Assembly: GCA_001724265.1 (NCBI GenBank)
Contig: MEDY01000015.1
Coordinates: 1 to 64,000 of the forward strand
DNA length: 64,000 bases
From: Rhizaria sp. SCN 62-66
Taxonomy: Eukaryota
Reading direction: 5' to 3'
A program made the position numbers and the translations under genes. The notes beneath the pieces are model-generated. The model had not been told where the DNA came from. It was given only the letters and a program-made list of their open reading frames with translations, and did not search any database. Position 1 is the stretch's first letter; every line of letters starts with the position of its first letter. Shown one piece after another: positions 380 through 61,300 of the stretch.

Positions 380-1509
380 TCTGGCGGGGAGGCCCACACT
401 GCAGGGACGGTCAGAGCGAAAAAAAATATGCAATGAAGAAGTGAGGGCTTTGAGAAGCTATTGCGTGAATTTCGAGAGTATGCGCAGCTGTTTGGGATTT
501 TTTTAAAGCTATCTGCCCCATAACAAATGCATCGCGATTGCCCCTGCTGGGATGAGTTTGGCAAAGGAGAGGACTTGCAATGTCCTCTCTGAGCTTCACA
601 TTGAAGAGCCATAACTGACTCTAATAAGGATTCCTGGGAATGACGTTGAAATATAATATAATAGAGACACAAATATAATGCAGAAGTATACTGTAATTTC
701 CACTGAACGTTGTATTAGGTCTTTACTGTCGTCCAAAAGAATAGCTTCACAGGGCTTCTTCGGTCGGCTTTTTTGCGAACCAGGAGGATCGCTAATAGCT
801 GGTCAACAGTGATAAAAGCAACTATGAACTGCACGAGATAGGCTGATATGGCTCAAATGACGCGTATGAGAAGCATGCTATGGCTGTCACATGCATTATT
901 TACTTTTTAATTGTCGACTGGGGACGATGTATCATAAACATGCGTCCATTGTGAGCCGACTGACAAGCGCATCAACACCATTGTTTACATTGTAATGCAC
1001 GCATTTCGCATTAAATAAAGCTTGAACCGCTGAATAAACTGCGCGGACGTTAGTTTTATGTCGTTAATTTGGTTTAAAGTCTGGTGATGCTCTAAGTCTT
1101 GGGGTTACTCAGGAATTGGCAAACGATTCAGTCCTTATTGAGGATATCATGGCATATATAATCATATCGCGAAAATAAAAACGGCTTTATGACAACTAAA
1201 ATGTGTGTTTATATACAATGTGGGAGCGAGATTCCAATATATCAGTGTTTGACCAAACAACATGCGATATAGTGCAGTTTGAACACACAGTGAACCGCAA
1301 CAGCCACACACTTCCGCACCGCGCTGCTCTTCTTTCAAGACACTGTAGTACCTTAGTACATCCGTCAATAGGACAATGAGAGCACCCCAGGTTTTTCAAC
1401 ACTATAATGTAGTGTTTCATTTGCTTTATTATCACACTACACACTATTATGTATCTCTCGCTCTCTGAATGCGCACTCACTTCGTTCTATCTTCTACCCG
1501 CAGCGCTGT

Positions 1510-7000: not shown

Positions 7001-8848
7001 CGGTGCCGCCACGCGCTTGAGCTGACCGGGGACTAAGAAGCACGTCACATGGGCGTGCGTCGCGTGGTCAGCCGCAAAAGATCGCGACAAGAGCACTGTG
7101 AATGAACGCCGTGCGGGGTCAGTCGGCAGGGAGGACATGACGCCGAGCCAGCGGTCACCGCGCAACGCCGCCGCGGCAGCGAGCAACGCAGTAGGTTCGC
7201 TGTCCGCATCGTCAGCGCTATGATAATGCGAGTGCGCGCTATTATTACTCTTGTTAGTAATTACAGTGTTAGGAGAGGAAATTAAAGCGCCGCCAGCGGA
7301 TGCGACAGTGGCCGTGGGCGCGGCACAGCTGTTTGACAGCGAGAGCGTTGCTGTGCCGGCCAAAGTGTCGAATGTCTCAATCACAGCGAATTCAAGCACG
7401 GTGGCGTTGTCGACCCGTGGCAGGGTGACTGTGCTAACGACACGCACGAGCACACCGCTCTCAGTCGCACCACCTCTACTGCTGCTGCTGCTAGAATTTG
7501 CATTATCTCCCCTGCTATCAGGCAGTGCAAGTGTATTGCCGTCACGCGGGCTCTTATGGGTCGCATCTGACGCGCTTGCATCACCGTCGCCGTCGCCGTC
7601 AGCAGGACTGTTATCGCTCCCTTGTGTGAAATCACCACGAGGGCCCCTGACCGCCGCCGCTACTCTCGGTGAAGCCACGGCTCTTAACGCAGTTGCGACT
7701 GGCGAGGCGAGCGCCGAGCTCGATTTTGAAGCTAGGCCGCCCGGCAGTGAGTACACATTGCCGAACACGGCGTCCTCTTTGCGCCTCTGCGTCGCCGCCA
7801 CGGCCGCCGTGGCCGCGGCAACGGCCGCTGGGGCGCTCGACCCGTGACCCGTGGCCGTCGCAGCCGCCGCTGCCGCCGCGGCCGCGAGCGCGGGATGGTC
7901 AAGCGCGTGACTCGGGGTCGGGGCGACGCAGACAGCGCGCTGGACGTCCGTGTCGAGACTGCAAAGCGCGGCGACAGCGTCTGTGATGACCGAGAGCTCC
8001 CCGACGATGACGGCCTTTTTGCGGTGGAGTAGCGACGACTGCAGAAGGGCGCGGATGACGCCCGCGCCGCCACCGCTGGGGGACCAGCCAGTCGCGCCGC
8101 CCGCCGCCGCGGCAGCCGCAGAAGCAGAAGCAGAGGCCGATGAAGTGCTGTTCGACTGCGTTGATGACTGTAGACTGATTGTGACCGCAGTATCAGGGCA
8201 GATTTGCGGGAAAGGCAAGACCGCGATCGGGCAGCCAATAGCCCTGTGTGCGGCAAGTAACAACGCCGTAGCGCGGCGTGTTGCGACGTCGCTTGTGATC
8301 GGCACGACGACGTCGCTGCCGGCGGCTGAGGAGACGAGCGAAAACGCGAGGTGTTTAGCAGTCTCGTGCGGGTCAGTCTGCTGTTGCTGTTGCTGTCCAA
8401 ACGGGTTAAACTGGGACTGTGGCGCCGCGGCAGAGGAGATGGGGAAGAAACGCAGCGTGGTGGAAAGGTGCGCAGTGAGCAGCGCGGGGAACTCAAGCGG
8501 CGACGCCGCCGAGAACGGTGCGCGTTGTGGCGTAAGGGCGGCTGCAGCATGCACTGCGGCGTGCGCGGCCGAGGTTGGAGACATGGGAGCCGCGTCAACA
8601 ATAGCGGCGGCGGCTGCGTCAGAGAAGGAGGAAGACTGCGAGACTGTGAGGACCAGAGGGCGAGGCGGGGACGGCGCGGCGACAGGACCCCATGATGATG
8701 TTACAGTTGCTACTGCAGTCGCAGTCGTTGCTCCCCCCGTCGTAGGGTGCTGTGCAGCAGGCTTGACGGGGGTGGAAAAGCCAGAGGTCGCAAAGACAGT
8801 CGGCCGGTGAGGTGCGCGCGGCTGCTGCGGCGGCTCTTGGGGGTCCAT
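4041..8848 (-). CDS. Two-exon Ala-rich protein (~1558 aa) with probable degenerate SF2/DEAD-box helicase-like fold
   Basis: Exons 8848-6443 and 6311-4041 join two long ORFs in phase 0 (GAG|GTACGA...TTTAG|TCG); ends TAA. Start at 8848 (MDPQEP) preferred; 8926 possible. Degenerate motifs in helicase order: RAVCVAPT, FAVIETFD, FTVLLSRSF, RRVAVFAPT, QVLLFAS, YARPGQ. Gene model is solid; function is inferred. Confidence 0.7.
6312..6442 (-). other. Spliceosomal intron, 131 nt, phase 0
   Basis: GTACGA...TTTAG; AT-rich; restores the frame between two long ORFs. Confidence 0.8.
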
Positions 8849-9603
8849 CTGGGTGAAGCAGGGTGGTGACTTGGCGATGGACAGCAAGTCACAGCAAGGC
8901 TGAGGGCAAGGGCGGGTAGAAGGCATAGATCAGCGAGTTAAGGAGTATTATTAGAGGGCCGCGTAGAAATCAGAGAGGAAATACGACAACTTGAAACCTA
9001 TATTCTCTTGACGGATCTATGACAACATATGGGATGCGCTTTGAACCTCCAAGACCGTTTTCGAGTCTCGATTTTTCGGTCCACCGTATTCGACCACGAT
9101 CGACCACAACACAGCGCGACCGAGCCAGAGCGATTCAACGGGCGTTGCTGGCAGACCGAGGAACTTTCAACGCAGCATATGACGGGAGGAGGACCAGAGT
9201 TAGCAGTGTTTGCCGGTATTCATACTCTTTGGTTTATTTGTGCGTTATTCCTTTTGTTTTCTTGTTGTGTGGCGTGCTATGCAGAGATATCTCGATGTTG
9301 CACTCGAGCACGCGGTTGTGACGCCCGATTCTTGGTTCTCCTCTTGTCGTTGGCTCACGCCCTCGTATGCAGCTCGAAACGTCCATATCTCTCTTTTTAT
9401 TGCCATTGCCACTGCGTTACCTCCTGAATATATGCTATTTTTTGCAGTAAAATGCATCTTCCCCGTGTTTGTCTCGTTGATGTGTTCCCTCAGCAGCCAA
9501 CGCCTCGTGCCATACCTCCCTTTCGCTCTGCCCCTTCACTCACCTCCCCTTTCCGCTCCTTTCACCCTCTTTTGGTATCTCCGCCTCACCCCACAGTTCC
9601 GCA

Positions 9604-32666: not shown

Positions 32667-33082
32667 TAATTATGTTTTTAAACATTTTTCTCGTCGCTTT
32701 CATGCACAGATACTCACTCTTTATCACAGTTACATATGAAACAGTTCATATTTAGTCAACTCAATGCAGTTTTAGTTACAAAAGTGTAATACACATTGAA
32801 TAGTTTCAATTCGTTCGACGTCCATTATTTGATCCATCATTGCTATGTATAAATATGGTTTATCTGTATTGATAGTTAGAATAACACTTGGTCTTTACGC
32901 TCTACTACCGACACGAGGCTGGCCCTTGACTCACCAATACCACTCACTCATCCTAGCACTTACAATCCGAATGAAAGCAAGCAGTTCTTAATATACCGCG
33001 TTACTGCGCCAGCGTAGTTGCAGATCGCAATGACACATCAGTAATAGTATTCGTGGGAACGTCGTCAGTCGAGTCAGCTCAT

Positions 33083-36804: not shown

Positions 36805-37449
36805 CACTGCGAGAGGAGGATGATGTCTAGTTGGAGTGGAATTACAAGAGAGTAAAAAGCCACACTAAACGCAATCGGTGCAAGAACGCTTAGTCGCCTG
36901 ACGGTCAGATGAGTGTGGGGCACTTCGTTCAAATTGTCCCAACTCACCGGCTCTCTGACGACGGGCAAGCCGAGCTTAAACGCGATGGTTCGTAAGCTGA
37001 TGCAAACCAGGATGCTCTGAGCGCTACCCACCGTCTTTTCTTGATTTGACTTGTGCTCAGTAGAAGACCTTTTAGCTGATGCATATCTTTAAATTATAAG
37101 TTTTTCTGCCATGAAGCACTCGTCCTACAGCGTCTTTGATTGAAAGCCCACCATCGTCCCCCAACCGGGTTTGTGGTTCTTTATTATCTTCCATCGACTG
37201 CGATAATTTCTGCTTCAGTTTATACCGGACCAAATTTTTCGTTAATCAAACACTTTGTTATTTTCCACCAGATCTGCTAATTTTCTATGGGCGACGAGTT
37301 ATGCCACTATCTGCTCAATTCCTTATCTCACATCACCACCTCCTCCGCCTATTCACCTTCGCCCTTGCCCCGACAGCGCTCTCTTCACCAGACCCGCTTT
37401 TTAATCTTTAAGCGCCTCGCACCGTACTGTTCTTTTTCCTGCACCGTTG

Positions 37450-40400
37450 ATGTCGTCCCCCGGGACCTCTGGTGGCGGAGGCCAGAGCCGCTCCCCGTCA
37501 CCCTCTCACCACGGCCAAACCCCCAACAACAGCGCCAGCAGCAACAGCAACAGCAGCAGCAGCAGCAACCCGAGCAGTCACGAGAGTCATAGTGCAGGTG
37601 ACGCCGGTGCGGCGCAGGCGACGGGCTCGATTGGCTCGCTGCTGGCGCGCTCAGTTTGGTCCGTGCTATCCGCTTGGACCAACTCCAGCAGTCAACAACA
37701 GTCACAATCTGTACAGACGGTGACGGCCGCTCAAACTTCTCAAAGCACAGTCGTTCCCGCCTCTAACGCCTCGAGCATCTCTGCTACTGAGGATGCTAGC
37801 TCTGCTCACCGTGTCTCTAGCGCGAGCGGCGCCGCTGCCGCAGGCTCTGCATTGCCGCCGCAGCCTGGCTCTGTCACCGCTTCATCGTATCACCCTCACG
37901 ATTCGACTGCGCTTGAGTCGATCTCCACCTCGCAGTCTCACTTGCAGTCATCGCAGCCCCGGTCCCGCGCCCGCACCCGCACGCACACACGCGCCGGCTC
38001 TGCCATTGCTCTCGGCAGCGCAGATCCCAATGCCGCCACCGCCTCGTCGCCGCATCTGTTCCCTCACGCGGACCCTCGCTCTACCTCGGGTAATCGTCCT
38101 ACGCCGACTGCCGCCGCGGGCGCAGAGGCGTTGTCTCTGGGACCGAGCGATGCGAGCTCTTACCACGCAGCACATGCTGCCCGCGCAATGGGACGAAATG
38201 AGGCCGTTGGTGCGCACTCTGTGAGCACCGGGGGCGAGATGGGGAGTGTCTTCACCCCAGGCCCTGGCGCCGCGTCGGTGCTCGCTCTCAGGGCCGCGTT
38301 TGACCACAGTCACCCACACAGTCATCGCGGCAGTGGCAGTGGCTACGGCCAGAGTCAGGGTCAGGGTCAGAGCCACGGTCACTCTCGCCGGTCTGGGGTG
38401 CAGAGCTACAACCAGAGCCGCCGTACCCTCGGCTACGATGATGAAGAAGAAGAGGAGGATGACGACGAACTCAACACGGATACGGACAACAACACAGATA
38501 CCGACACCGATACGGATACAGACGCTGACACGGACACTGACGAGCTCGAGCCATCTCCCGCTTCATCTCCCAACATCATCAACAACAACAACAATCTCAT
38601 TAACAGTGCGAGTAGTAGCAACATCCACGCTAACATGGTCGCCACCGGTGCAGTCGTGGCCCCCGTGACTGTGGGGGTAGGGGCCGCCTCCGCCAACGCC
38701 AACGCCGCCGGCGCCGCGAGCGCGCTGCCACTGTCCCGCCTCGCTATCCCCCACTCGCACTCGCGCTCAGCCTTGCTGGCGGCAGATGCGGCCGCTGTCG
38801 CCGCGGCAGTCGCGGCCGCCGCCGCTGCCACCGCCACCGTGTCTGCCTCCACGTCTAACATCGGCACTGGGACTGGGTCGGCGTCGCCGTCGCTCAATGT
38901 CCGCCGCACATCTTCAACTGCTGCGGGCGATGCCTACGGCTATGGCAACCACGGCGACGACGGCGGCGGTGACGGGGACGACGACGATGATGCATATTCG
39001 TACACCGACACGGACTCGCTGCAGCAAGACGTCGACAGCTCTCTTACTGCAGCCGAGCCTACATCTGCTCGGAGCAACGCTGCGGGCCGGAGAGTCAAGC
39101 GTGCTCTCTGGGGCTCTGGGGCGACTGTGGCGCCCGCTCACGGTCATTCCGCTGCTGCAACTGCCGCTACTACTGCTGCAGCAGCTGCTGCTGGTGTTGC
39201 CACGACGGCTACTCACGGTCACCTCGAGACTGCACAGGGCGGCCTGACTGCGGGGCCGTTTGACCGGTCGCGCTCGGGCTCGGGCTCGGCCAACTTACTC
39301 GCACTCACCAACGCTAACAGTAACAATAACACCAACAGCCATACGAGTGCTGCGCTGCATTATACCAGTCTCGGCCTCGGCCTCGGCCCCGGTCAGGGCC
39401 TACACAGCCACGGCCTCAGCCACGGCCACGGCTACTACGGACTGACTGCGCTGCCTGCCGGTTTGTCTCTGCCGGCAATCGCGTCTCTGCCAGTCACGTC
39501 GTCTCTGCCCGTCACGTCGTCATTGCCGTCGCACGCACTGCCCATTGGCGCGGTCAACTCGGACACAGCCGGCTTGACGGGCACTCCCACCGCCAGCGCC
39601 CATGCCGCCGGCGCTGGCGCGGGCGCTGGGGCTGCGGTGACGCCGGTGACTCCTCTCGGGACAAGCTCGACTGACAGCGATGCCGCTGCTCTGTCCAGTG
39701 CGATGGCGACTACCGGCACTCCCCACCCATCAGACGGCGGCGAAGGTCCCCACAGTGGCGCAACTGCGGCTGCAGCCACGGCCACGACGCAAGACCCCGC
39801 CCGCTCGTCCCCGCCCCGTACCGCAGTGACCACGGGCAGCGGGAGCGGAGTGACCGTGAGCATGCCCGACGACACCGCTGTCACGCCCACGGTCACGCCC
39901 ACGGTCACGCCCACTCACCACACGAATCCTGGCGCTAGCAGCAACAGCAGCGCCGCGCCTGAGAGCGGCGTTTTGTCGCTGGGCGCGGGCCAAGCGCTGC
40001 TGCGCCGCCTGCTGGAGCTGACTTCCATCGTCACCACTCCGGGGCCGTCGCCATCGCCCGCCACGCCCGCTGCCGGCTCACTCGCGACCGCCGCGACCGC
40101 CGGCAGCAGCAACAGCAGCAGCGGCAGCGGTAGTGCCGGTGGCGCCAGCGGGCTGGACGCGGCGGCGGCGGCGGCTGCGGCGGCGCTGCCGGCCTCGGTC
40201 AGTGCCGCCGCCGCCGCTGCCGCTGCGGCTGCTGGTTCTGACGCTGCGGACGGCCACCCCGCCGGTGCGGGTGCGGGTGCGGGTGCGAGCCTTAGCAGCC
40301 TCGGCGTCGGCATGCGCCCACACCCCGGCTCTCTGCAGAGCGGTGCCCAAGCCAGCAGCAGCAGCAACAGCAGCAACAGAAACACGGCCATGGGCCACTC

Positions 40401-43400
40401 GTTGTCGCACCCGCTCCCGCACTCCTCGTCACAGTCGCTATCGTAGTCGCATTTGCTGCCGGGCTCGCTGATGGCGGCCACGACCATCTCTGCCCACAGT
40501 CCCAGCCACAGCTACAGCATCGCGGCCGCGCCTTCCTCCACCGCCGCGAGCACGGCCGCGAGTACCGTCCCGGGTGCCTCGGGACACGTGAGTCTGGGCA
40601 CGTGCCTCAGCAACAGCAACAGCAGCAGCATCGCCATCACGAGTTCCCGCGGGACCGGTGCCGGTACCGGTACTGGCGCTCCCGTCGACCGTCGCCGGGT
40701 GAGTTTCGGCCCCACACACACCGCTGCGTACCCCACGAGTACCGGCTCCGGCCACTACAGCCCCAGTCCGACCCCGAGCCCGCGCGGGAGCCCGCGTGGA
40801 AGCCCGGCTTCCGTGGCGGCAGCCGGCGCGGCCATCGCCGCTGCGGCCGCGGACACGGGGCTCAGTGTCGTCAGTGGCGGCGCGTTCGACGATATGTTTG
40901 CTGCGATCCCCTTCGATCCTTCTAACAACAACATCATCAACGATGCTAACCGCAACGTCGCTGTCCCTGGCTCTGCGTCTGCTACCACGACCGATGCTGT
41001 GCTCGAGTCAGCTTTCTTGGGTCTCGCTCGCAGCGACTCGCACCTCCGCGGCGACTCACTGCTCCGTAGTGACTCTCTGCTCCGTAGCGACTCTATGATG
41101 CGCAGTGCACCCGGTGAGAGCACAAGTAGACTTGACTACTGGGTTGGCCCTTCCCCGCAACATCAGCAGCAGCAACTGCAACAGGCTGGTTTAGTGCCCG
41201 CGCCCGCTGTTGGCTCGACTCTTAGCCCTGTGCACGCCCACAGTCACCACGCACAGCCACAGTCTCAGTCATATCCGCATTCGATGTTGGCGATGGCGCG
41301 GTCTCAGTCAGGCGACCTCTCGCCGTCACCGACACTCTCACGGTCATCGTCCGCGTCGTCGTCGTCTTCGCTATCGTCCGTCGCATCCTCAGTCTCCTCT
41401 CTCGCGGACGGCGGCTACGCCGACACCGACGGCTCCAATGGCACCGCCGCTGCGAATGCAGCCACTGCCGCCGCCACAGCGAACGAGAACGTCGCCGGCG
41501 GCGCAGGTGCGGGCGACGGGAACAGCAACGATGCGTTGCCGCCGCTGCGCGGGCGCACGCGCGCGCGCGACGGCGAGCGCGACCGCTCCCGCACCCGTCA
41601 GCGCGGTAGCACTGTGACGCGCACCGCCGCCGCCGCCGCCGCGGCCGCTGCGGCCGCCGCCGCCGAGGCCGCCGCCGCCACTGCCGCCGCGGCCGCCGCT
41701 GCGGTTGAGGCGCACCGCTCGCGCAGCCCGTTCGCCGCGGCTTTGTCGTCCTCCGCCGCCGCGGCCGCTGCGGCTGCGACGACGGCGGCCGCTGTCGGTG
41801 GCACCGCCACCAGTGGCGAGCCGAGCCCCCTCCGCAGCCCCGCCGAGAGCGACGCGGGCGGCGCTATGGCGGCCGCTCTGAGCAGCGGTGACAACAACGG
41901 CGGTAACGGCAGCGCCGGCGACTCGGCGGCCGCTGACTCGAATGCAGTCTCTGTTTGTGACGGCACCGATGTCGACGCGGGCGACGCCGACGCCGAGACC
42001 GACGCCGATGGTGACATTGAGATCGGAATCCCTGCGGGCACGAACGCGCGCGCTTCCGTTGCGATCAAGGCTGCGACGCGCACGCTTTCCGCAGCAGGCG
42101 CGGCCATGCACACTGCGTTCAACGCGCTGTTGAGCCGCTTCACAACGTCCGCAGCTCCCGGTGCTCCCGCAGCTGTCAACACGCCCCCCGCGGTTCCCGC
42201 CACCGCCGCTACCGCTGCTGACGCGGCTGCGACCAAGCCCTCCGCTGCTGTCGCGACCGGTGCTGACGCGGCAAAGACGGCCGCAGCCAAGCCCCCCGCT
42301 GTGCCCGCTCGCGTAGCCGCCACACAGACCGCGACCGCGGCCGCAGTCGCGGCTGCGCCGGCGTCGGCATCGAAGCCTCGGTCCACGTTGGGCGGGTTTT
42401 TCTCCGGCCGTTACTCCACGGGCAGCGCGAGCAGCAGCACGAGCGATGCCGGCCAGCCGCCGTACTCGCGTCCTGGCTCCGTGGGCCCGCACACCACCTC
42501 CAGCGGCGGCAGCGGCAGCAACAGCTTCGCTTCCGCGACCGGCAGCGCGGGCTCGGCCGCGAGCAGTTTCACCGAGGCTAACGCCGCCGCCGCTGGCACG
42601 AAGCGTGTCACGGTCAAGACGACCGGCGCTGCGGCGATTGCCGGCGGCGACAGCAGCGGCACAAATCGCCTCTTTCTGCAGCCTCCAGCGCAGGCGAACC
42701 ACCGCATCACGGGCCAGGTCGCGCTGGGCGCCATCACGTTCCTGCTCGTGGCGCTGCTGTCTTTGTCCGTGGTTCTCGTGCGCCGCGCGCCCGTGTGCAC
42801 GATCTTGACGATTTTGCTCGTGGCGACACTGTTGGCGTTCGTGTTGACCGAGACGCGCAAGATCGGCATCTGGCACTCGCGGATCGAGTACGAGAACCAG
42901 TTCTGGACGCTCTGGAACACAGCGCTCGCGGCCACGTTGATCTTCTCACCCGACTCCCCGGTCTCGACGCCGTTCTACGCGTACCCGTGGTTCGGCATCT
43001 TCCTCGTCATCACGGCCGGCTTCCACGCCCACCATCGCGACCGCGCACAGTCCCACACCCTGCTGCGCCGGCCGTTGCTGCCGCGCGTGCCGTCGCTGGC
43101 GCTCGTCGCGCGCGGGCAAGCCAAAGACACGCTCACACGCGTGCAGACGCACGTGACGTCCCTCGACAACAGGTTCGCTTTGTCGAAGCCCTTCCGCTCC
43201 CGCGCCACGACCAGCGCTGAAGAGGCGATTCTGACCATTTTCCGCGAGTGTACGCGTGAAGAGCTGAACTACGTGGTGTCGAACGTGTCTCTGGCGTGGA
43301 TGCTGCACAAGATCAAGGACCGTGAGCCCAAGGAGAAGGAGCGGGTTGCTGCACAGCGGGCCGCAGACGACGCCGCCAGGCTCGCCAAGGCCGCGGCCGA

Positions 43401-46400
43401 GGCGGCTGAGGCGGCTGTCGCTGCTGCCACAAACGCTGCGAGCAACGCCAACAGCACGGAGCAACAGCTTGGCGCAACGGCGGTCACTGGCGCAACGGCG
43501 GTCACTGGCGCTGCTGCGGCCGCTGCCACCGCGGCCGCTGCCACCGCGGCTGCTGCCGCGGCCGCGACAGCCGCCGCGACAGCCGCCGCGGCCGCCGCTG
43601 TCGCCGCGCGCCGTGGCCGCCGCACCGCACTGCTTAACCTGCTCACCCGCGACCGCCTCGCTGACTTGGACGTTGTGGCGCGCGCGTGTGTGTTGGATGC
43701 GCTGCAAAACCTGCGCCTCACGGCCCACGTCGACGCCATTGCGTTCGTGACGAACATCTTGCTGCACACGTACGGCGTCGACATGACCAACTTGAAGTCT
43801 CTCATGGACACCAAGGGCGACGCCAACTCGTTGCACAAGCTGCTCTTCACAGACGTGCCCGACGAGGCCGCGCGCGGGGCCATTCTGGCGCATATCAAGC
43901 GCGAGGGCGACGCCGTGTTGGCGCAGCGTGCCGCCGCTGGACTGGGCAACCTCGCGCGGCAGCCCATGCGGCTCGGTGTGCCGTTTCCACAGAAGTTGCC
44001 ACATAAGCGCGCGCAACTCGCTCTACCAGTGCCTGCGCCTGCGTCTTCATCTTCATCGCTCTCGTCGTCGTCTCTAGGCGCGAGTTCTGCTGTTGAGGCC
44101 ATACGTGCCGCCGAGACTGATGGAAAGGCGGCGGGGCCCGGTGCTGTTGCCGCTAAGGCGGACTCAAGCGCTGTCAGCGCATCTGCGCCAGACGACAATC
44201 CCGTTGCAAGCGAAACTTGTGCCGAGGCGGAGGTCACCATTGTGTCCATTGCGGCTGGCAACGCGAGCAGCAGCTCTCTGGAGCCCGTCGACCCCCGCGT
44301 GTCCCTGGGTGCGGAGGATTTGCTGCGGTGGGGCGCTGCGCCTGCTTCCTCGCTGCCGTTCTCCCTGCTCGCGAAGCTCCGTGACCAGCACCGCCAGTGC
44401 CCTGCTCTCACTCTGGCGCCACCGAGCGCGAGCAGCGACGCTGGGAGTGCATGCGACAGAGACGCGAGCGTGGTGCCCCGCGCGCTGCCTCTGCGCGCGC
44501 AGTGGCCGCCGTACGCTGAGCTCGCTTACTCGGCGCGCTACGGCGGCGGCGTTACACTGCCCCCGCCCGAGCTTTTCTCTGACGCCCCGTCCCCTGCGTT
44601 CACGCCGACGGTCACCACGGCCACGACGACCGGACTCAGCGACGTCCGCGCCGCTCTCAGACTCCCGCGCGCCAGCGCCGGCGGCGGCGTCCCCGCCTGC
44701 GTGGTGGGCTACTCGAGCACCGGCAGCGACGCCGCGCGCACGGCCGCGCTGGCGCACATGCAGCTGCTGCAACACCTCGCGGTCGCCGCGTACACCGCGC
44801 TCACCGCCGCGTCCGCCGCGTCCGCCGCCGCCACAGCCGCCGCGGCCGCCGCGGGCGCGCCGCTGCCGTCGGTCGCCGCCGCCGCTGCAGTAGCGACGGC
44901 GACCCACGCGTCACCGCTGCTGTATTACGCCAGTATCGCGCAGATCCACGCCGCGTTGCGGGCTGCAGTGAACCCTGAGACCGTGATTACCGGTCCAGTC
45001 GCCAATGCCACTCCTCAGCCTCAGGGCGCGCAGACTGCCGATGCGATCGCAAACGTTCCGACTGCTTCACAGTCTGACGACACACCGGCGTTATCTGCAC
45101 TCAGCGCTCTCAATGCCGCTCTCGGGGGCACTGGGAACAGCCAGAACAACAGCAATATCCTTGCGAAGCCGGCCACAATCGCTGACCCGACAGCCGCCGA
45201 GCTGTGGATTCTTGCTGACTGTCTCCACGACCGGTTGGAGTGCCTCTTTCGCGCCCACGGTCTCTCCGTGCGCGCCCCGGCGCGCGCCCCCGCGGCGGCG
45301 CGCGAGTGCGACAATGACCGCGACGGCGACTGTGCGCCCTCGGCTCTTGTCTCGCTCGCCGTTGCGGGCATCGCCATCCAGCTGCAGACCGAGGAAGAGG
45401 CCGCCGCAGCCGCTGCGGCAACTGCCGCCCGCGCCGCCGCCGCGCGCCGCCGCGCCCAGGGCCCCGCTGGCGGTGCTGCTCGGCAGGGCCTCCGCAGCGC
45501 CTACAGCGCTGCGTCTGCGACTGCGGCTGCTGCTGAGGCTGAGGCCGAGGCTGCTGCTCTGCAGTGGCAGTGCCCGGGCTCCGAGTCCTGGGTCGTCGCC
45601 GTCACGCACCCACTGCCCGTGGCGCTCGCGTTGCCGCTTGCGGTCACGTACGACTCGCTCCTCTGCGCGCCCGGCCCTACCGGCGCCAACACCGCCGAGT
45701 CCGCCTCTGCGGCCGCGAGGGCCGCCGCGGAGTCGGGCGCGCGCTTCACGCCGCAGGGCTTCGCGGCGCTGTGCCGCGCCATGCCGGACCCCGCGCCCGC
45801 GGCCGTCGCTGCTGCGCCGCTGCCGCCGCACCTCCGCTTCGCCGAGGAGGCTGCAGCCAACGCTACTGCCAACGCCGCCGCCGAGGCCGCTGCTGCAGAG
45901 GCCGCCGCCACCGAGGCTGCTAAACGCCCCGCGGCGGCTGCGCCCACTATTGTGACGGCCGCAACTGCTGCTGCCAACGCAGTGAACAGCGCTGCGGCTG
46001 CGCTGCCCCCGCTGCCTTCAGCCCCCGCCGCTGCCGCATCTGCCTCTGCCCCTCCCGGTGGCAGCGGCGTCGGCGGTAAGATGGGCGTTCTCGTGCGGCC
46101 CCCGCGCCAGTCATATGCTCGCACCGACTCTACTCCTGGCACAGGATCTACTGGCGCTGGTTCTGGCGCTGGTTCTGGCTCTGGCTCGGGCGTGGGCGCC
46201 GGTGCGGCGACCGGTGGTGGCGGCGGCCGGTTAGCCCGCGCAGCGACAGCGCGCGCGTCTTCCCGCGCCACCACGAGCTTCACCGCCCCGTCCCCGGTCC
46301 CGACTGCCGCCGCTGTGTCAACTCCTGTGGCGACCCCTGCGCCCGGTGCGACTTCGGTCACGACTGTTGCTGCGCCAGACAGTGGCCGCAGCGCGATGCG

Positions 46401-49400
46401 CCCCGGCTCAATCACACCGGAGCCCTTCACTGCCACTGGCGCTGGCGCCGGCGCTGATGCCTTCCCCGGCACTGGCTCTGGCTCGAGCTCTACCGGCGTG
46501 TCGTTGGGTCTGGTCACGCGCCAGTCGCGCGCCGCCTCCGCGGTCGACGCGCCTCTGCCGCGCGAGCGCGCCGTCTCGGGCACCGCGCTCACTCTGCTCC
46601 AGCAGGGCCAGGAGCATCACCGCGTGTCGCCGACTGTCGCCGCGGCGCTCCACGAGAGCAACAGCAACGGTATCATTGTCGCTGGTGCCATCACGGGGTT
46701 GCAGAGCGGCCATGTGGGGCCGGAGAGCGAGGAGGAGCCTGAGTCACCGAACTCACCGCTGCCGCTGTCAGCGCATGCACTGGCGGACGGCGCGCGCTAC
46801 CTCAGCGGCAAGCCTGCGCCCCTGAGGCACACCGTGGCCGAGGCGGCTGGGCCTGAGACTGGGATTGAGGTCGAGGCGGAGGCGGTGGGCGCGGCTGAGG
46901 CTGAACCCGAGTACAACGACGAGGATGAGGACGAAGAGAGCAACGCACGGTGGGATGTCGCCCCTCTCCACTTTCCACCTACCCCGGCTCCGAACGCTCA
47001 GAGCATCAGTAACGCTAACGGCGCTGTCGCCACGACGCCCGCAACCAGCGCCATCTCCGCACCTCTTGTCCTGCGCACCGCGCCGTTGACTCCAGTCCGC
47101 AGGGAAGACACCCGCCCCGCCCCCGCCGCCGTGGCAGTGGCCGCCGCCGCCGCCGCCGCCGCCGCGCGCGCGTCCTCGAGCGCAGCCCGACTGACCCCGG
47201 TTGTTGCCCCCGCGCGCACGCCCGGTCTGGGCTCCATGTCTGCGCTCCCGCTCGGCGCGCTCAGCTCGACTGCGGCCGCCACTGGCGCTGGCGCTGGCGG
47301 CGGCGGCGGGACTGTGTCCGTGAGCGCGAGAGCGAGCGCGGCCGGCAGCGCTGTCGCCACCCCTGGCTTTGGCCCCGGCGCCGGCTCCGGCGTTGTCGCC
47401 CCCGCGCCCGCGCCTGCGGTTGCTGCTGTCTCCGCCACTGCCGCCGCCGCTGCTGGCGCGCCCGGCAGCTCGGCCGCCACGACCACCGCCGCGGCCGCCG
47501 CCGCCGCCGCGGCCGCCGCGAGCTACCGCCCGCGCCAGCTGACGCAGCAAGACCAGCAGAAGCAGCATCTGCAGCAGCCCAGCGCGGTGCACCCGCACCA
47601 CCAGTCGCCGTTCCTGTCGGCCGCGCTGCCCGTCTGGCGCGGCGGCCTGCCGCTCGCGCCGTGTCTCGCGGGCGGGGACGAGTCGCCGGAGGATTCCCCT
47701 GCGTTCTCGCCCGCAAGCGCTCACAGCTCCGCCGCTGCGAACAACAACAGCAACAGCAACAGTAACAATAACGGTAACAGTGCAAACGCCGCAGCGAACG
47801 GTGTTAGCGCAGGTGCCAACGGTGCTGCCATTGTATTGCCGGGGTCGGCGGCAATGACGCCCCTGCACGCCCCGGCGCCAGTGCCACTGCTTGCTCTGAC
47901 GCCGGCTCCGCTGGCGCGCCCGCGCTCCGGCCTGTCGGTCCTCCACCCTGGCTCGGCCACGGCCACGGTGACCGCAGCGGCGACCGCGACGGGCGCGGCG
48001 GCTGCGGCGGCCATGTCGATGCTGGCGCAGCAGCGACACGCGCTCTCGGCGACGCCTACGCCGACGCCCACCACGCCAGCGCCCGCGGCGGCCGCGGTGG
48101 CTGCCGTCCCGGCACTGGCACCAGCGCCGCCTTCTGCGGCGTCTTCTGCGGCTGCTACTATGTCTGCGGCCGCGGCTGCGCCTGCCACGCTCGTGACAGT
48201 AGCGGTACCGCAGGAGGCCGACGGCGCGGTCGCTGCGCCGCCGGCGCTGTCGTCACCGACCGCAGGCAACGCCATCACGGGCGCAAACGAGACGAGCGCC
48301 GTCGGCGAGCGTGGTCTGTCTGACGCAGCCGATGATGCCACGGCCCCTTTACTGCTGGCGTCTATCTCGCTCCCCATGCAGTCGAAGTCTCTCCCGTCGA
48401 CCGCCACCGCCGCGACCGCGACTGCCGCCGCGACGCCACCGCAGCCGCAGCGGCAGAGCGCAGTGTCTTTGCTGGCCCGCAGCGGACCCGTCGGTTCGTC
48501 CATCGCAACTGTCAGCGCCAGCGGCCCCAGCGGCGGCGCCAACACGCGCGGCGGCGACGGCGGTGTGATGCAGGCGTATCCGCAGTCGGCGCAGTCTGCG
48601 TGGACCGGTTACGCACCGCAGCCGCAGTCTCAGTCACTGGCACGGTCGCAAGCAGCGGCCGTCGCGACACAGCTTGTCATTGAGGACGAAGACGGCGGCG
48701 TGACGCCGGGATCATCGTACTCATCGCTGTCTCTCACGAGCGCGAACGAGGCGAATATCTCCAACGTGCCTACGATGGCGCGCACTGAGAGTGTTGGGTC
48801 AGTTTCCTCGTCGCTGTATGCCGGCTCCGCCGCGGCAGCGCTGTCGGCGGTGGCGGCGACTGCGCGGCAGGCGACTTCGCTGCTCACGGTCACCGAGAAC
48901 GTGGGCGCGGCAGCTGATGTGATCGAGCTTGACACGGACAACGGCGTTACGGTTGGCTCTAATGCAGTTAGCTACCCGACTGTTATCCTTGCACACGATG
49001 CTACCATGGCAGCGAACGCTGATAACACAGCGACAACACAGAACAACGATGGCGATGTCACGACGGAGATGACTCCGGCTGCAACCGCCGATGCGCACAC
49101 CGCTGCAGCTGCCGCCGCCGCCGCCGCTGCCGCAGCGCTAAGTGTGTCTCCGGCTGCATTCCTCCCTGCCGTCCCGCTGCTGCCGCTGCCGCGCAACCCG
49201 GGTCCCCTGCGCAAGATCCTCTCTGACGTCGACGACACGCTCTTCTCCTCTGGCGGAAAGTTCCCCGCTGGCGTGGACCGCCAGTGGGGCAACCACGTGC
49301 TGTACCCGGGCGTGCTGCGCCTGCTCAAGGAGCTCGACCTGGGGTTTGACCCCACGGGCCAGTGGACGCATCTGCACGGCAAGGGCAACCTAGCGTTCCT

Positions 49401-51956
49401 CTCCGCGCGTCCCCACGTGTACAAGGATAAGAGCGAGCGCAAGTCGTACGCGGCGTTCGCGCACTTCCGCGAGCACAACGGCATGCACGCCACGGCGACT
49501 CTGCTCCCGGGCTCCCTCGACGCCGGGCTGATCATGTTCGCCGGTGATTATAACCCGATGGCGGAGCGCAAGTATGCCAGCTTCGCCGAGTTTGCGCAGT
49601 TGTACCCAGAGTACTCGTTCATCTTCCTTGGCGACAACGGCCAGGGCGATGTCATTGCGGGCGATAAGATGAAGAGCGCGCTTGGACCGCGTATGGAACT
49701 TGTCCTCATCCATCAGGTATGTCATCTAACAATGAATCTACAACTCAATTAGTCACATGCTTCTATGATTCTTATTTTGACCTTCTTACTGTATCCTTCG
49801 TTCTGTCTTGCTACTATTTCATCGATCTGTAGGTGCAACCGATCTCGGCGACCCCCGGCTACTCCCCCGAAGCCCGCCTCCGCTGGGCGCGCAACGGCGT
49901 CCGTTTCTACCAGACGTACGTCGGCGCAGCGTTGCACGCATGCGCGGCGCGCGTCGTACACCCTCGCGGCCTGCGCCGGTCGATCCACGCCGCCGTGGAC
50001 GAGTTTTACGCCTACTCGCATAAGGTGCTGAGTGCTTATGGCATGGATAGGCTGATCCCCAGTGTGCGCGCGAAGGCGAGGGCCGAGAGGGACAAGGCGG
50101 AGGCTGAGGCCGCTGCTGCCGCCGCTGCTGCCGAGGCCGCTGCTGCCGAGGCCGCCGCTGCCGAGGCCGCCGCTGCTGAGGCCGCCGCTGCTGTTGAGGC
50201 CGCCGCTGCTGCTGAAGCTGCTGAAGCAGCTGATGCTGCTGATGCTGTCGAGTCTGAGGCTGCTGCTGCTGCTGCTGCTACTGAAGGTGTTGCTAGCATT
50301 GCCGCGAGCAACACTACAAGCGCGCCAGATGAAGAGATCACGACAATCTCCGACAGCGCGAATGCCGCCGCCGACTCTGGCGATGTGGCGGCGACAGTCC
50401 CTGCGACTGTTGACGGCTCCGTCGTGAGCGCTGAGGCGCCCGCCGGTCCATCACACGACCACGCTACGGCTGACGCGGTGGCGGCGGCTGCTGCTGCTGC
50501 TGCTGCTGCTGCTGCCGCTGATTCGACCAGCCAGTCTTTGCCTCAGACTCTGAGCCAGAGCCAGACTCTCACGGCAACTGTCATTGGTATCGACGACGCC
50601 ACCGCCGCAAATGGAGCCGAGACCGCCTCTCAAGACTCGGCACAGTCATCTCAACAGTCTTCCTCAGCAGCTGGTTCTCGCGCGTCCTCGCTGTCCCCTC
50701 TGACCGTCACGGCGCAGCCGTCGTCCCAGTCCAACGCAAGCGCGTTCACGACCTGCAGCACCAGCGGCCCCACCGCCGTTTCCCCCGCCACCGCTGGCTC
50801 TCCAGCAGCTGGCTCCCCTGCTGCCGGCTCCCCTGCGTCGTCGACAGCCTCGATCTCTACTGCGGCTGCGGCCGCGACTGCTGCTGCTGCTGCTACTGCG
50901 TCGTCAACGGGCCTCGTCTCCTCGCCCAGCACGCCCGCGGCGCCGCGCAACGCCAGCCTCGCCGCGCGCACCGCCCCGACTCCGGGCCCCAACGCCAGCG
51001 CCAGCGCCAGCGCCAACAGCACCGCTGCCGCGCCCGCAGCGGCGGCCCCGGCGGCGAACGGCGCTGGCTCCGGCCCTCGCAACACGCCGGGCCGCACCCC
51101 TGCCCCCGGGTCCTCGTCCTCGTCGTCGTCGTCGTCAGCCGCCGCTGCCGCCACCGCGGCCGCCGCCGCGTTTGCCGCGACCGAGCTCGCACTGTACGAG
51201 TCCCGCCGTCTCGCGCTCAACCACGAGATCGCGCTCGCACTGCGCCTACTCGCCGCGCCGGAGAGCCTCGAGGCCGACGTCGCGGTCGGGCTCGAATGTG
51301 CGCCGCTCGGCGAGTGTGATCCCGCCGACCTCGCGCCGATCCGCCTGCTCCCCGCGGTCCGGCTCTGGGGGTCGGGCACCGTGCTGGAGCCCGCCGGCGG
51401 GTCCCCGCTCGGCCCGGGCGTCGTCGAGGGGTTCGACGCCGTCGCTAACACGTACAAACTGCGGTTGGTGCCGCCGATCGTGCAGCGCCGCATCGGCTAC
51501 TACCCGCCGCCGCGCGACCCCGTGACCGGCCGGGCCACCGGCCGCGGGGACTTGCCGCCCGGCGCGGCGGGCACGATGACGCTGCACGCGCACGCGCCCC
51601 AGCTGCGGCCGGCGTTGCGCGGGCGGCTCGGGGACCGCGTGTACTGTGCCTGGGGAGCTGGCGTGCTCACGCAGGTGCGTGCGGACGGCTTCCACGTGGT
51701 GCGCATCTTCCAGTCGCTGGATGGCAAGTCACAGCTGCACGCCGTGGTCAAGGCGCTCGACATCAAGCCGATCAAGGCCGCGCGTGGTGACTGGGTGCTG
51801 ACAACGATGGGCCGCGGTCAGGTCGTTCAATACCGTGGTTATGACGGCATGTACACTGTGCAGCTAGCGTTTGGCGCGACGATGTACACGCGCGAGGATG
51901 GGATCCGCGACCTACTGGGCGGGGCCACCTCGGAGAGCTCCTGTATGGTGCAGTAA
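37450..51956 (+). CDS. Very large membrane protein with App1-like HAD phosphatase domain, SH3/KOW-like C-terminal repeats and CaaX; one in-frame TAG at 40444-40446
   Basis: Frame 37450-49716 is continuous except for a single TAG; intron 49717-49832; exon 49833-51956 ends TAA. TM helices at ~42718-43023; KILSDVDDTL (DxDDT at 49225), FLSARP, FIFLGDNGQGD; GDRVYCAWGAG and GDWVLTTMGRG repeats; terminal CMVQ. If TAG terminates, the unit splits into 37450-40446 and a downstream gene. Confidence 0.72.
49717..49832 (+). other. Spliceosomal intron, 116 nt, phase 0
   Basis: CAG|GTATGT...CTGTAG|GTG, giving VLIHQVQP. Confidence 0.9.
50100..50245 (+). repeat. Coding minisatellite, ~15-bp unit encoding (EAAAA)n
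   Basis: GAGGCCGCYGCTGCY units; translation EAAAAEAAAAEAAAAEAAAAVEAAAAAEAAEAA. Confidence 0.8.
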
Positions 51957-51976
51957 GAGAACGCCGAGTTCCCTGA

Positions 51977-57868: not shown

Positions 57869-58342
57869 GACAAGGCGGGAGAAGAAGACGCCGGAGGATA
57901 GCTGAGCGGAAGAGAGTTGGAGTTGTTGGACTACTGCAGTCGTTGGCGTTTAAACAAGGGAGGTGTCGGGGAGAAGGTAGGTATTGAGATGAGGACACAT
58001 TATTTAAACAACAAAAAGGAAATGACAAATAAACTACGGATACACTTGCGATGGCTTTCGTGACGATCGAATCCTTGATGCCAGATGTTTTGAAGTTTGC
58101 TCGTGTCGAGGTGGCCGTTGCTGACCGAGGAGGCGCTAGAGACCGTTACACCACTTCGTTCAAAAGCCACATGATCCCATATCTTCCGTTGTTGCTTATA
58201 ATTTTACTATTCACGAAATATATACAAACAAGTTTGTTATATATTATAATGGCTTATTATCTATCTGTTGTATACCTCTCCCTGTAGCCCCTTTACTCTT
58301 CCACCTTTACTCGTGTGCAGCCGGGTCCTCGCAACACACACC

Positions 58343-61300
58343 ATGAGCGGGTCCGGCGGCAGCGCCAACCCCGCAGTCCACCTCTCGCAGCCGCCTATGA
58401 TGTCTTTGAACCGCCTGGGCCTTATCCGGTCTCGCGACGACCCCGCAGTGACAGGCGCCGCCCTGCCAGAGTTCTCAGGATTCCGCCCCGGTAAGAGCCT
58501 CACACAGCGCACCACCAGTGCCTCTGCCGCCGCCGCTGCGGTCGCCGCTGCGGCTGCTGGGTCTGCTGCGGGCACCGATGTTTCCACCTTGCTGCCACGG
58601 TCCTCGTACTCAGCGGCCTCCGCAGGTTTGCGCATCCTCGCCCCGCGCGGGCCCTCAGCAGCAGTTGGGGCAAGTTCTACCGCTACTGTCTCAGGCTCTG
58701 TTATTCCGGTGTCCTCAGCCGCGTCTGTGGCTTCCGCCTCGTTTGACGCGCATTTGCTCAAGCATGCCGAGCGCAGGCTTAACGCGCCTCTGCCCGCCGC
58801 GCCCCCGGGCCCCCACTTTGGCTCCACACAGCTCCTCCCAAGCTCGACGTCGTCAGCCGCTGCCGCAGCAGCCTCCAGTGCCTCAGGCGCAATGTCCGCC
58901 CGCGTCCTGACGTCCCGCGGTGGTGGGAACACTGGCGGCGGACTTGTGTTCTCTTCCGACGCGGCCCCCAATGTGTCGGACCCGGTCTTCGGCACGCGCC
59001 CCACGCGTACCCGCGCCGTAGGCACATCTGACTGGACCGCCCCCGCGCCCCCGCCGCCGCCGCCGCAGCACATGCACAACCGCCCTTCGACAACCTCCTC
59101 GTCTGCTGCTGCTGCTGTGCCACCGGGGCAGTTGCCTCAACACGGCCCCATCGCTGCTGCCGGGAACACGGGAGCTTCTGCTGCCCACGGTCCCGCCGTG
59201 CCCACGGTCACTTCGTTCGGACTCGGAGGCGCCCCTTTGCCTGGCAACGGCGGCAACGTTATGCACGCCAACACAGGCATGATCGCGACATCCTCCGCTT
59301 TCCCCGATAGCTCAAACGCAAACCCAACCTCGGCGTCGAGTTCCTCCAGCTCTGGTTCTGGTTCGAGCTCTTCTGGCTCCGGCGCGGGCTCGGGCGCGTT
59401 GTCGCGCGAGAGCGAAGGCACCGCGTTCCAGCACTGGCTCGACGCGTCCCTCAAAGCGCGCGGCTTAGCCTCACAGCTCACCTCGGCCGCCGTGGCCCAC
59501 GAGCGGCTTGAGTTCGAGAACGCGCTGCTGCGGCGCCGCGCGCTATCGTCAGCGCCCGCCGCTGCGGTCCGCGAGCTCGAGGCCGCTGCGGGCGCGATGG
59601 CCCAACGGCTGCAGCAGCTCGAGGCGCTGTACGCCGCCGCCGTCGAAGAGCGTGCTCAGTTGCTCTCAGCGATCGCCGCGGCCGAGAGCGCCGGCGACGC
59701 GGCGCGGGCGCAGGCCGACGCCGCGGAGCGCGCTGCCAGCGAGACGCGCGCGCTCGAGGCCGAGGCGGCGAAGCGCGTCGCGGAGCTGACGCGGAAGCTT
59801 GCGGCAGCCGACGTTTCGCGTGCACGGCTGGAACGCGACGCCGAGGCGCAGGCCCACGCAGTGGAGGCGGCGAGGCGCGCGCAGGCCGCCGCGGAGCAGG
59901 AGCGCGCACTGGCCGTCGCACGGGCCGCGGAGGCCGCGGCGGCCACAGGCGGGCGCGCGGCCGCGCTGGAGCAGGCCAAACGCGAACGGGATGCCGCCGT
60001 GGATGAGACGCTGCGGCTGGAGGCGGAGCTGCAGCGGACGGCGTTGGCACTGGCGGCTGCGGAGGACAGGTTGGCGCAGGCGGCGGCGGCAAAGTCACAA
60101 TCGGCGACGGAGCTGGAGCTGCAGCTGCGGCGGCAGAAGGAGGAGGCGGCCGAGTTCAAGTCAGCGGCTGGCAGGGCGCAGCTCAGGGCGGAGGAGCTCA
60201 CCAAGGAGATGCTCGCCCTCCAAGCCAAACACCAGGTAGGCATCAATCAATATATATCGCGATAGCAAGAGTTCCACGAACTTAATTTTGTTCATATCAA
60301 TGTATATATTGTATTTTTATTATTTTACGAAGCCATACTTTATCATAACTTACTCATGTTGATGTGTGCGCCAATTATTACTCTTTGCGCTCGTTTGACT
60401 TATACAGACCGAGATGGACGCCGGCGCGGGCCGACACGCGGAGACCGAAGCCCGCCGCGCCCGGCTCCAAATCGAGGCGGACGAGCTCACCCGTGCCCTC
60501 GCCGCCGAGCGCGCCACGGTCGCGGGGCTGCGGGACGACCTAGCTGCGGCGATGACTGCGAACGAGCTCGAGTCCCTGGCGCGCGCGTCTGCCGAGAAGG
60601 ACACCGCGTCTGAGCGCGCCAAGCGCGACGAAGCCGAACAGCAGGGCCGCGAGGCGCAGCGCCGCATCCAGCGCCTCACCGCGCAGCTTGAGACGGCCGA
60701 GACGCGCCGCGCCGCGACCGAGGCCGCCCGCCGCGCGGCTGAGGAGGCGCTCGCCGCGGCCAACCGCCGGCTAAAGGCTTTAGAGGCGGAACTCGCAGCC
60801 GCTAGAGCCGAGGCCGAGACGGCGGCGCAGCGGCAGACCGCGCTGGCTGACGCGCTGGCGGCGTCCGAGACGCGGCAGCGGGCCGCGGCGCTGGCGGCGG
60901 CGCAGCAGCAGGAGCGTTCGGCCCGCGAGGTCGCCGAGGCGCGCGCCGCACTGGCCGCCACCGCGCGCGCGCTGGAGCAGCAGCGGCAGCGCGGCGCGGA
61001 GCTGGAGCGGCAACACCTGGAGGCTGTCGCGAGCCAGATGGAGGAGCGGCGCCGCCACGAGGAAGGCATGGCGAAGCTCGTCGCGGCGGCCAAGCGGCTG
61101 CAGCGTCGCGGCGAGGAGTTTGACGCCGTTGTCGGCGCCAAGAACAGCGAGCTCGCCAAGGCGGACGAGCGCGCAAAACAGGCCGCGCGCGAGGCCGCTG
61201 CGGCGCGGTCCGAGGCCGAGCGCGCGCGCGCGGAGCTAATGGCGAAGCAAGAGCGTTTGCGCGCTGCCGAACAGCTTGTGCGCGAGCTCAACGACACCGA

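Follow-up and report, generated by a model that had tools for sequence, protein, structure and literature searches.

A genuine TAG codon within a 4,796-codon gene for a predicted membrane phosphatase: probably a plain nonsense change

Introduction

A single TAG codon interrupts a very large open reading frame on contig MEDY01000015.1 of the assembly named Rhizaria sp. SCN 62-66 (GCA_001724265.1), of which we analysed positions 1 to 64,000 (hereafter, the window). The organism is an uncultured wastewater protist, probably of cercozoan-like affinity. How should this TAG be understood: as an ordinary stop caused by mutation, as a stop that ribosomes pass, as the boundary of two genes, as part of an intron, as a codon with a changed meaning, or as an error in the data? 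We found nothing that marks it as a special decoding signal, and an ordinary nonsense change is the most likely explanation.

Gene structure

We found two stop-to-stop ORFs in one frame, 37405..40446 (1013 codons) and 40447..49752 (3101 codons). The only stop between them is the TAG at 40444–40446, in the sequence ...CTA TCG TAG TCG CAT TTG... (UCG UAG UCG CAU UUG in RNA). The first ATG lies at 37450, giving an upstream ORF (37450..40443, + strand) of 998 codons that encodes a low-complexity protein rich in Ala, Ser, Gly and Thr, which matched no family in a Pfam search. The next in-frame ATG past the TAG (40471..40473, +) is 8 codons, or 24 nt, downstream and could serve for a restart or as an alternative start. 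The final 12 codons of the raw downstream ORF, together with its apparent stop TAG at 49750, fall inside a spliceosomal GT..AG intron (49717..49832, +; 116 nt, GC 0.34, phase 0, cag/GTATGT...CTGTAG/gtg), the join of which is bridged by an alignment with the homologue P0121 (IHQ/VQPIS versus IHRIQPLN). The rest of exon 1 (40447..49716, +) therefore comprises 3,090 stop-free codons, covering the remaining low-complexity extension, a hydrophobic region, a conserved middle domain, a very long insert of low complexity and an APP1 catalytic domain. Exon 2 (49833..51956, +) has 707 codons and then the true stop, TAA at 51954–51956. The two exons span 37450–51956 (+) and total 4,089 + 707 = 4,796 codons. 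The locus is one two-exon gene with a single premature TAG, and the original prediction of a gene of about 4800 codons broken by one TAG, with both ORFs in one frame, holds.

We then investigated the coding signature across the TAG. Over the coding regions of the window, stops occur at 250 of 17,415 codons in one off-frame and at 507 of 17,415 in the other, and at such rates a frame would stay open for 998 codons by chance with a probability of about 5e-7. A codon-usage score trained on the window's other genes prefers the same frame in all 100-codon windows between 37300 and 42250 and is unbroken at the TAG, in agreement with the earlier observation that codon style is unchanged there. The GC content near the TAG is 0.68–0.78, in contrast to 0.30–0.50 in intergenic stretches and introns. 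Every gene boundary and all four verified introns of the window are AT-richer than the TAG site, and the AT-rich intergenic stretch before the gene (GC 0.40–0.55) stops shortly before 37450. The earlier remark that no AT-rich intron lies at the TAG is borne out, as no GC dip occurs there. The frame codes on either side of the TAG, and the site resembles neither an intron nor an intergenic stretch.

Protein domains and homologues

The conserved parts of the protein are encoded downstream of the TAG. A hydrophobic membrane-spanning region (42712..43029, +), with Kyte-Doolittle peaks at residues 1753–1802, aligns to residues 214–357 of P0121, a 1,898-aa protein in a cluster that includes Nannochloropsis and Microchloropsis proteins of 1,858–2,015 aa. 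This region starts at residue 1,755 here, at 214 in P0121 and at 6–150 in the majority of the 150 representatives listed. The middle domain (43216..43911, +) is 47% identical to residues 690–812 of P0121. The 451-aa segment containing it matched no Pfam family, but an exhaustive search of representatives matched 358 library proteins (E<=1e-3), among which the best identity was 38% and no close orthologue was present. The APP1-type (HAD-like) phosphatase catalytic domain (49216..49713, +) is indicated by Pfam PF09949 (APP1_cat) and by the P0121 alignment. The PF09949 match covers profile positions 3–153 of 154 with a score of 26.3 bits (E 8.1e-6) against a cut-off of 27.1, a level exceeded by both P0121 (31.2 bits) and the homologue P0122 (33.7 bits), and BLASTP gives 52% identity to P0121 over 180 aa (E 3e-53). 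The APP1/HAD-type family is defined by a DxDxT motif and a distal GDxxxxD motif. Here, DVDDT (49225–49239) and GDNGQGD (49630–49650) align to the same motifs in P0121, with the DxDxT and GDxxxGD patterns retained, so the catalytic motifs are intact downstream of the TAG, as had been claimed. The product would be a membrane-anchored protein with a predicted APP1-type phosphatidate-phosphatase domain, for which a Mg2+-dependent activity would be expected. Yeast App1 phosphatidate phosphatase is more distant, the link being the name of the Pfam family PF09949 alone.

The P0121 cluster of protist membrane proteins has the same order of hydrophobic region, middle domain, APP1 catalytic domain and C-terminal tail. 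However, the membrane region here follows some 1,750 residues of low complexity, compared with about 210 in P0121, and a further insert of about 1,730 residues lies ahead of the catalytic domain. Another difference from the cluster is the in-frame TAG in the N-terminal extension here. The part common to all homologues lies entirely downstream of the TAG. Since the distant homologues have short N-termini, the interrupted part is a lineage-specific extension, with the upstream ORF at its front.

Searches for closer relatives of the locus gave little. In a word-indexed search, the conserved segment had one match among 8,000 scored candidates, namely the distant P0121, and it had no match in metagenome_contigs or genome_contigs. 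The junction region (residues 780–1230, with the TAG read as Q) matched none of 1,623 scored candidates of 2,248–7,156 aa; such blank protein searches carry little weight because the window's own large ORFs are absent from the collections. In genome_contigs, the sole match to the query P0003 was the unrelated locus L081 (27%). The MAP kinase P0285 of a relative led to locus L001 on a 200-kb contig.

The TAG in independent sequencing runs

We compared contigs from four public runs of three studies over 38500–42500. X1 and X3 are DNA runs from 2015–2017 and a possible source of the assembly, while X4 (a polyA RNA library) and X5 (a second run) belong to one 2025 study. Contigs from all four runs match the window over at least 40388–40519 with no other letter and no gap, and the letters of the TAG are identical in X1, X3, X4 and X5. 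Position 40444, which the original prediction had proposed to check for T or C and for continuous coverage, is T in the contigs of all four runs, the RNA library included. Its caveat of a base-call error can be discarded, because the contigs of four of four runs, including the polyA RNA library, carry the TAG. The comparison did pick up an in-frame length variant of 3 nt at 41979, in each of the four runs, showing that it can reveal differences carried by contigs. The stop codon is real and genomic, and its identity in samples ten years apart indicates that it is no transient variant. Stretches of X4 and X5 without contig cover, and many short joints at 40103–40630, derive from low-complexity repeats and from other organisms.

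A likely nonsense change in a disordered extension

The reading that we prefer, and to which we give about an even chance, is that the TAG is a fixed nonsense substitution of a single base in a fast-evolving, disordered N-terminal extension. A recent nonsense allele had been offered earlier as a caveat. It is now the best reading, held at that same even level of confidence. Transcription would begin within the AT-rich spacer upstream of the gene, and ribosomes would initiate at the ATG at 37450, terminate normally at the UAG at 40444 and release a disordered polypeptide of 998 aa, and the catalytic part would remain unmade from this start except by basal leakage. Comparison with homologues indicates that the interrupted region is dispensable. 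That TAG behaves as a stop in this organism, with one in frame among 17,427 codons of the window's genes, and that no read-through signal was found also speak for a nonsense change. No second lesion is present in the 3,797 downstream codons, and the splice sites and catalytic motifs are intact. The change must therefore be young, or the conserved part is still expressed in another way. Several observations sit uneasily with a nonsense change: a long-dead gene would not have so intact a downstream part, an ATG 24 nt past the TAG would fit a functional arrangement of two ORFs, and the TAG has stayed the same in samples separated by ten years.

No sense codon was found at the TAG position in the contigs of the four runs or in the protein searches, the collections being without the window's own ORFs. 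With no sense-codon allele or orthologue found, the mutation is one that we infer and have not seen. Ordinary premature-termination alleles and young unitary pseudogenes likewise have a single stop in a low-complexity, poorly constrained region of a gene that is otherwise intact. Unlike in such cases, the TAG is the only form in all four runs here, and no intact allele or orthologue was found.

The ancestral codon had been proposed to be CAG, on the ground that the peptide reads naturally with Gln. CAG is indeed a possible ancestor, but the proposal was overstated, as CAG is one of eight single-step ancestors. Others are common here, including TCG (both neighbouring codons are TCG) and GAG. 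We also considered internal repeats of the gene as a guide to the ancestral codon and rejected them, as their similarity is at chance level: the SQSHL repeat at 37930 has 2 mismatches in 15 nt relative to the TAG site, and a similarity of 22 nt at 41356 is out of register after 10 nt.

If the TAG is a plain nonsense allele, it matters for annotation only. The locus should then be annotated as a single gene of two exons and 4,796 codons that carries a premature stop, and not as two genes, and it should not count as evidence for a variant genetic code.

Possible read-through of the UAG

An unlikely alternative, though one that deserves attention, is that UAG read-through is tolerated or programmed, in the latter case as the isoform switch suggested in the original prediction, so that mostly the 998-aa disordered protein is made and a minority of ribosomes produce the full predicted membrane phosphatase of 4,795 aa. 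The 3,797 codons past the TAG are open and coding-like, the motifs and the intron are intact, and the TAG has been stable across studies from 2015 to 2025. The contig of the X4 RNA library also runs unspliced through the TAG. The other TAG terminator candidate in the window (32664) is backed by a TAA, which would fit a leaky UAG, although this is a single case.

The sequence context argues against read-through. UAG CAR YYA is a stimulatory context for read-through, and leaky UAG codons are known from tobacco mosaic virus and retroviral gag-pol. Further stimulatory contexts, in the available text of PMC12233894, are UGA CUA G and A-rich upstream sequences. The context here (cuaucg UAG ucgcau) has U at +4 and lacks CUA G, CAR YYA and A at -1 or -2. 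Nor does folding point to a stable RNA structure beyond the TAG: the downstream fold has a minimum free energy of -44.5 kcal/mol (z = -1.05), with 30 of 200 shuffles folding equally well or better, and an Rfam search of 36000–52500 matched no family. In programmed read-through systems, as at this locus, one in-frame stop stands ahead of a long open frame that looks coding and keeps the phase, but here neither a known stimulatory context nor a stable downstream structure is present. The locus also differs from the read-through of peroxisomal LDH and MDH, which yields short tails, whereas here the stop precedes the entire conserved body. The known cellular cases give short C-terminal extensions and do not gate a whole catalytic body (PMC4973966, PMC4359377).

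A more specific form of this idea, which we consider improbable, is that the leaky UAG sets a ratio in the manner of gag-pol: mostly the 998-aa protein would be made, and a small share of ribosomes would read 3,797 codons further into the predicted APP1 phosphatase. Perhaps such a switch would rest on generally weak UAG termination in the lineage, and the TAG-TAA tandem at 32664 would agree with that. Read-through or bypass of the TAG, if it occurs, would mean that a stop codon gates a protein's entire catalytic body, which is rare among cellular genes. It would occur in a lineage related to the only eukaryotes described with UAG=Leu in the literature available to us, and would be a useful system for the weakening of UAG termination ahead of reassignment.

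Two genes or a hidden intron as possible alternatives

Functional gene fission appears rather doubtful. The TAG would then end a real 998-aa product, and the phosphatase would be made from an internal transcript start or by termination and reinitiation at the ATG at 40471. In-frame ATGs are rare, with 8 in the first 800 codons, so that an ATG within 8 codons of the TAG is expected by chance in about 8% of cases, and its presence at this distance somewhat favours fission. The downstream ORF is intact, all parts conserved in homologues lie downstream of the TAG, and the N-termini of the homologues are short, as fission would predict. However, no AT-rich, promoter-like or intergenic stretch separates the two ORFs, unlike at the window's other gene boundaries. 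Eukaryotic reinitiation after an ORF of 998 codons is very inefficient, which speaks against this route to the ATG at 40471. With 24 ATG triplets in the upstream ORF, counted over all frames, leaky scanning is excluded.

It is very improbable that a short in-frame intron removes the TAG. We found 101 in-frame GT..AG candidates spanning the TAG, of which we considered 40443–40499 (GTAGTC...CCCACAG, 57 nt), where CTGAT resembles a branch motif. Its 5' end, GTAGTC, resembles the GTAGGC of the verified intron at 60236. Yet at 57 nt and a GC content of 0.65 it is unlike the four verified introns (116–172 nt, GC 0.30–0.49), and the letter before its GT is C, not G or A. The X4 contig, from RNA (40388–40519), and the X5 contig are unspliced over the candidate, and none among the 15 joints listed, beside which there are 333 further ones, matches an intron at 40443–40499. 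The check for cryptic splicing at the TAG that had been called for shows none in the X4 RNA-library contig.

The meaning of UAG in this organism

We then investigated whether UAG might be a sense or ambiguous codon in this organism. UAG-only nuclear variants include the rhizarian exLh (UAG=Leu) and Iotanema spirale (UAG=Gln), and no nuclear UAG=Leu code is known from outside Rhizaria, according to the available text of PMC5304391. The best named relatives of the window's MAP kinase are all Rhizaria, and exLh is probably from the same supergroup as this organism. The eight gene ends in the window comprise six TAA, one TGA and one TAG directly before a TAA (32664), so that a clean TAG terminator is absent among them, as might be expected under recoding. 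As the window holds no unambiguous TAG terminator, efficient UAG termination here is an assumption. No tRNA genes were found within the 64-kb window.

The in-frame counts nevertheless make such a change of code highly improbable. The 17,427 codons of the window's genes (about 11 genes) contain no TAA, one TAG and no TGA in frame, compared with 36 and 72 TAGs in the two off-frames; TAG is thus avoided like TAA and TGA, although the count is partly circular because the gene set consists of ORFs defined under the standard code. A free synonym for Gln would be expected roughly a hundred times, given 415 CAG codons and a TTG:CTG ratio of 172:492. When TAG is read as sense, no other pair of long ORFs in the window is merged. 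Known UAG-only lineages have 384 in-frame UAGs in 71 genes and 204 in 126 genes, or 1.6–5.4 per gene, in the available text of PMC5304391, in contrast to the one TAG in about 11 genes here. As in those lineages, the terminators here are mostly TAA, and a clean TAG terminator is absent from the 64 kb. The suggestion of UAG recoding in the original prediction is accordingly disfavoured, one in-frame TAG in 17,427 codons standing against hundreds in UAG-only lineages.

The least probable explanation, to which we give almost no weight, is that the TAG reflects an error in sequencing or assembly, or else a minority variant taken up by the assembler: the low-complexity repeats directly upstream (40150–40387) were skipped as repeats in the contig comparison, but the TAG is agreed by all four runs, two of them from a later separate study, and a single contig of X3 that spans the repeat runs collinear with the window from 39882 to 41261.

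Gene structure and homologues

We found that the TAG at 40444-40446 (...CTA TCG TAG TCG CAT TTG...) is a genuine and fixed stop codon. It falls prematurely in a single giant two-exon gene (37450-51956, + strand) for a putative APP1-type membrane phosphatase, within a disordered N-terminal extension that looks dispensable. It is the sole stop between the same-frame stop-to-stop ORFs 37405..40446 (1013 codons; 998 residues counted from the first ATG, 37450) and 40447..49752 (3101 codons), and the ORF listing and the window sequence bear out the coordinates and ORF lengths of the original prediction. The AT-rich stretch in which the raw downstream ORF ends is a spliceosomal intron (49717-49832, + strand; 116 nt, GC 0.34, phase 0, CAT CAG/GTATGT...CTGTAG/GTG CAA CCG). 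In the alignment with P0121, a 1,898-aa homologue whose cluster takes in Nannochloropsis and Microchloropsis proteins, ...LVLIHQ pairs with ...MYIHR on the 5' side of the intron and VQPISATPGYSPEARLRW pairs with IQPLNQSYGYDEHAFNRW on the 3' side. The gene resumes in ORF 49833..51956 and terminates with TAA, for a total length of 4,089 + 707 = 4,796 codons.

The conserved parts, all on the + strand, are in order a hydrophobic region (42712-43029), a middle domain (43216-43911) without any Pfam model in our Pfam search, and an APP1-type phosphatase domain (49216-49713; PF09949). The phosphatase domain scores 26.3 bits against a slightly higher cut-off of 27.1, is 52% identical to P0121 over 180 aa, and contains both DVDDT and GDNGQGD. 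An exhaustive search with a 451-aa conserved segment returned 358 proteins at E<=1e-3, with a best identity of 38%. Because the membrane region begins at residues 6-150 in most homologues among the 150 matches listed of these 358, and at residue 1,755 here, the TAG-bearing region is an extension specific to this lineage. Ala, Ser, Gly and Thr abound in it; before as well as after the TAG, Ala makes up 19-25% and Ser 16-18%.

The upstream ORF is coding by three measures. Off-frame stops in the window's genes number 250 and 507 in 17,415 codons each, and the chance of a 998-codon open frame computed from these densities is ~5e-7. In a codon log-likelihood analysis trained on the other genes of the window, the gene frame is top-ranked in every scoring window from 37300 to 42250, unbroken at 40444. 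GC around the TAG is 0.68-0.78, and the AT-rich spacer (GC 0.40-0.55) stops at ~37300, shortly before the ATG, as at other gene starts. Composition and codon style are unchanged over the TAG, as originally predicted. Many antisense or off-frame ORFs of 200-520 codons, such as 41389-42945 (-), lie within the large genes; we rejected them as artefacts of high GC (65-75%) and of GCN-rich repeats. The codon score puts the sense frame first.

Origin and consequences of the TAG

An ordinary nonsense substitution is the most economical reading of the TAG, and we give it about an even chance. The original prediction derived the TAG from a Gln codon (CAG>TAG). CAG is indeed a possible single-step ancestor, but it is not singled out: TCG, GAG, AAG, TTG, TGG, TAC and TAT are equally one step away, and TCG, the most frequent Ser codon (437 uses), flanks the TAG on either side. 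The internal repeats that we checked gave no dependable guide to the ancestral codon.

Behind the TAG, 3,797 codons and an intron are intact, which implies a recent change or else continued expression of the conserved body. Basal or programmed read-through, as originally suggested, could provide such expression, although we regard it as a minor possibility. The context UCG UAG UCG CAU carries neither of two stimulatory signals described in PMC12233894 (UGA CUA G; A at -1 or -2), the 123-nt segment beginning at 40438 shows no folding advantage over shuffled sequences (z = -1.05), and no Rfam family matched in 36000-52500. Expression from an ATG 24 nt downstream of the TAG or from an internal transcript is a minor possibility of about the same weight.

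It is quite improbable that a cryptic intron removes the TAG, an alternative that the original prediction had raised. The best of 101 in-frame GT..AG candidates over the TAG (40443-40499, GTAGTC...CCCACAG) has 57 nt and a GC of 0.65, unlike the four verified introns of the window (116-172 nt, GC 0.30-0.49, all starting with GTA). Moreover, contigs of X4 (a polyA RNA library, in which some DNA may be present) and X5, two runs of one later study, run through 40443-40499 unspliced.

Recoding of UAG as a sense codon is very unlikely. The window's genes, a set defined from standard-code ORFs, contain one in-frame TAG and no TAA or TGA in 17,427 codons, versus 36 and 72 TAGs in frames 2 and 3. Judged by the 415 CAG codons and the TTG:CTG ratio (172:492), TAG would turn up around a hundred times if it were a free synonym; for UAG-only lineages, PMC5304391 gives counts of 384 in-frame UAGs (71 genes) and 204 (126 genes). 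Reading TAG as sense fuses no further pair of long ORFs within the 64-kb window. As a caveat besides the standard-code gene set, the window shows no clean TAG terminator: two TAGs (49750 and 60263) fall in introns, and that at 32664 directly abuts a TAA.

A sequencing or assembly error, the caveat of the original prediction, is the least credible explanation, as a contig spans 40444 in all four public runs compared over 38500-42500 (X1 and X3, DNA runs and a possible source of the assembly, and X4 and X5), with no other letter and no gap. The TAG is genuine. No alternative letter is listed at any position of 38500-42500, in contigs from which rare variants drop out, and a single X3 contig is collinear with 39882-41261, including the repeat 40150-40387. 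A 3-nt in-frame length variant at 41979 occurs in one contig of each run alongside window-identical contigs, so contig-borne differences can be reported; the variant may reflect a further allele or strain, or else a repeat located elsewhere.

Organism and other genes

The window carries intron-poor eukaryotic genes, including those for a MAP kinase, a WD40 protein and a thioredoxin-like protein. The best named relatives of the MAP kinase are exclusively Rhizaria (Chlorarachnion, Norrisiella, Mataza, Paulinella, Amorphochlora, Bigelowiella and Spongospora; ~58-63% identity), and further relatives without a species name reach 80-88%. This stretch is present in bioreactor, wastewater and activated-sludge runs, and between 2015 and 2025 several studies yielded such runs with sequence identical to 39900-41000. 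Engineered water systems seem to be home to one widespread strain of this protist.

Frame and homology support the remaining three introns. The MAP-kinase gene (9605-11084, +) has a short first exon with its ATG at 9605, and a pyrimidine-rich 170-nt intron (9792-9961, +; GTACGT...CTCTAG); its stop-to-stop ORF by itself has no start codon before residue 100. An AT-rich 172-nt intron (60236-60407, +; GTAGGC...ATACAG) connects ORFs 58250..60235 and 60408..>64000 (58250-64000, +), with a PDZ domain close to the window's end. ORFs 6413..8929 and 4041..6311 (-), neither of which matched a Pfam family, appear to be one gene (4041-8929) interrupted by a 131-nt intron (6442 to 6312, -; GTACGA...GTTTAG). 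A giant unbroken, low-complexity ORF of 5,629 codons (15777-32669, +), with no Pfam match in its first 4,741 residues, terminates in the tandem stop TAG TAA, followed by ~900 nt of AT-rich sequence; its end is the only candidate TAG terminator of the window. The TGA of ORF 1408..3828 lies within GTGAGT (3825-3830), a consensus-like 5' splice site, and is probably a true stop because there is little room for an extra exon before the convergent gene.
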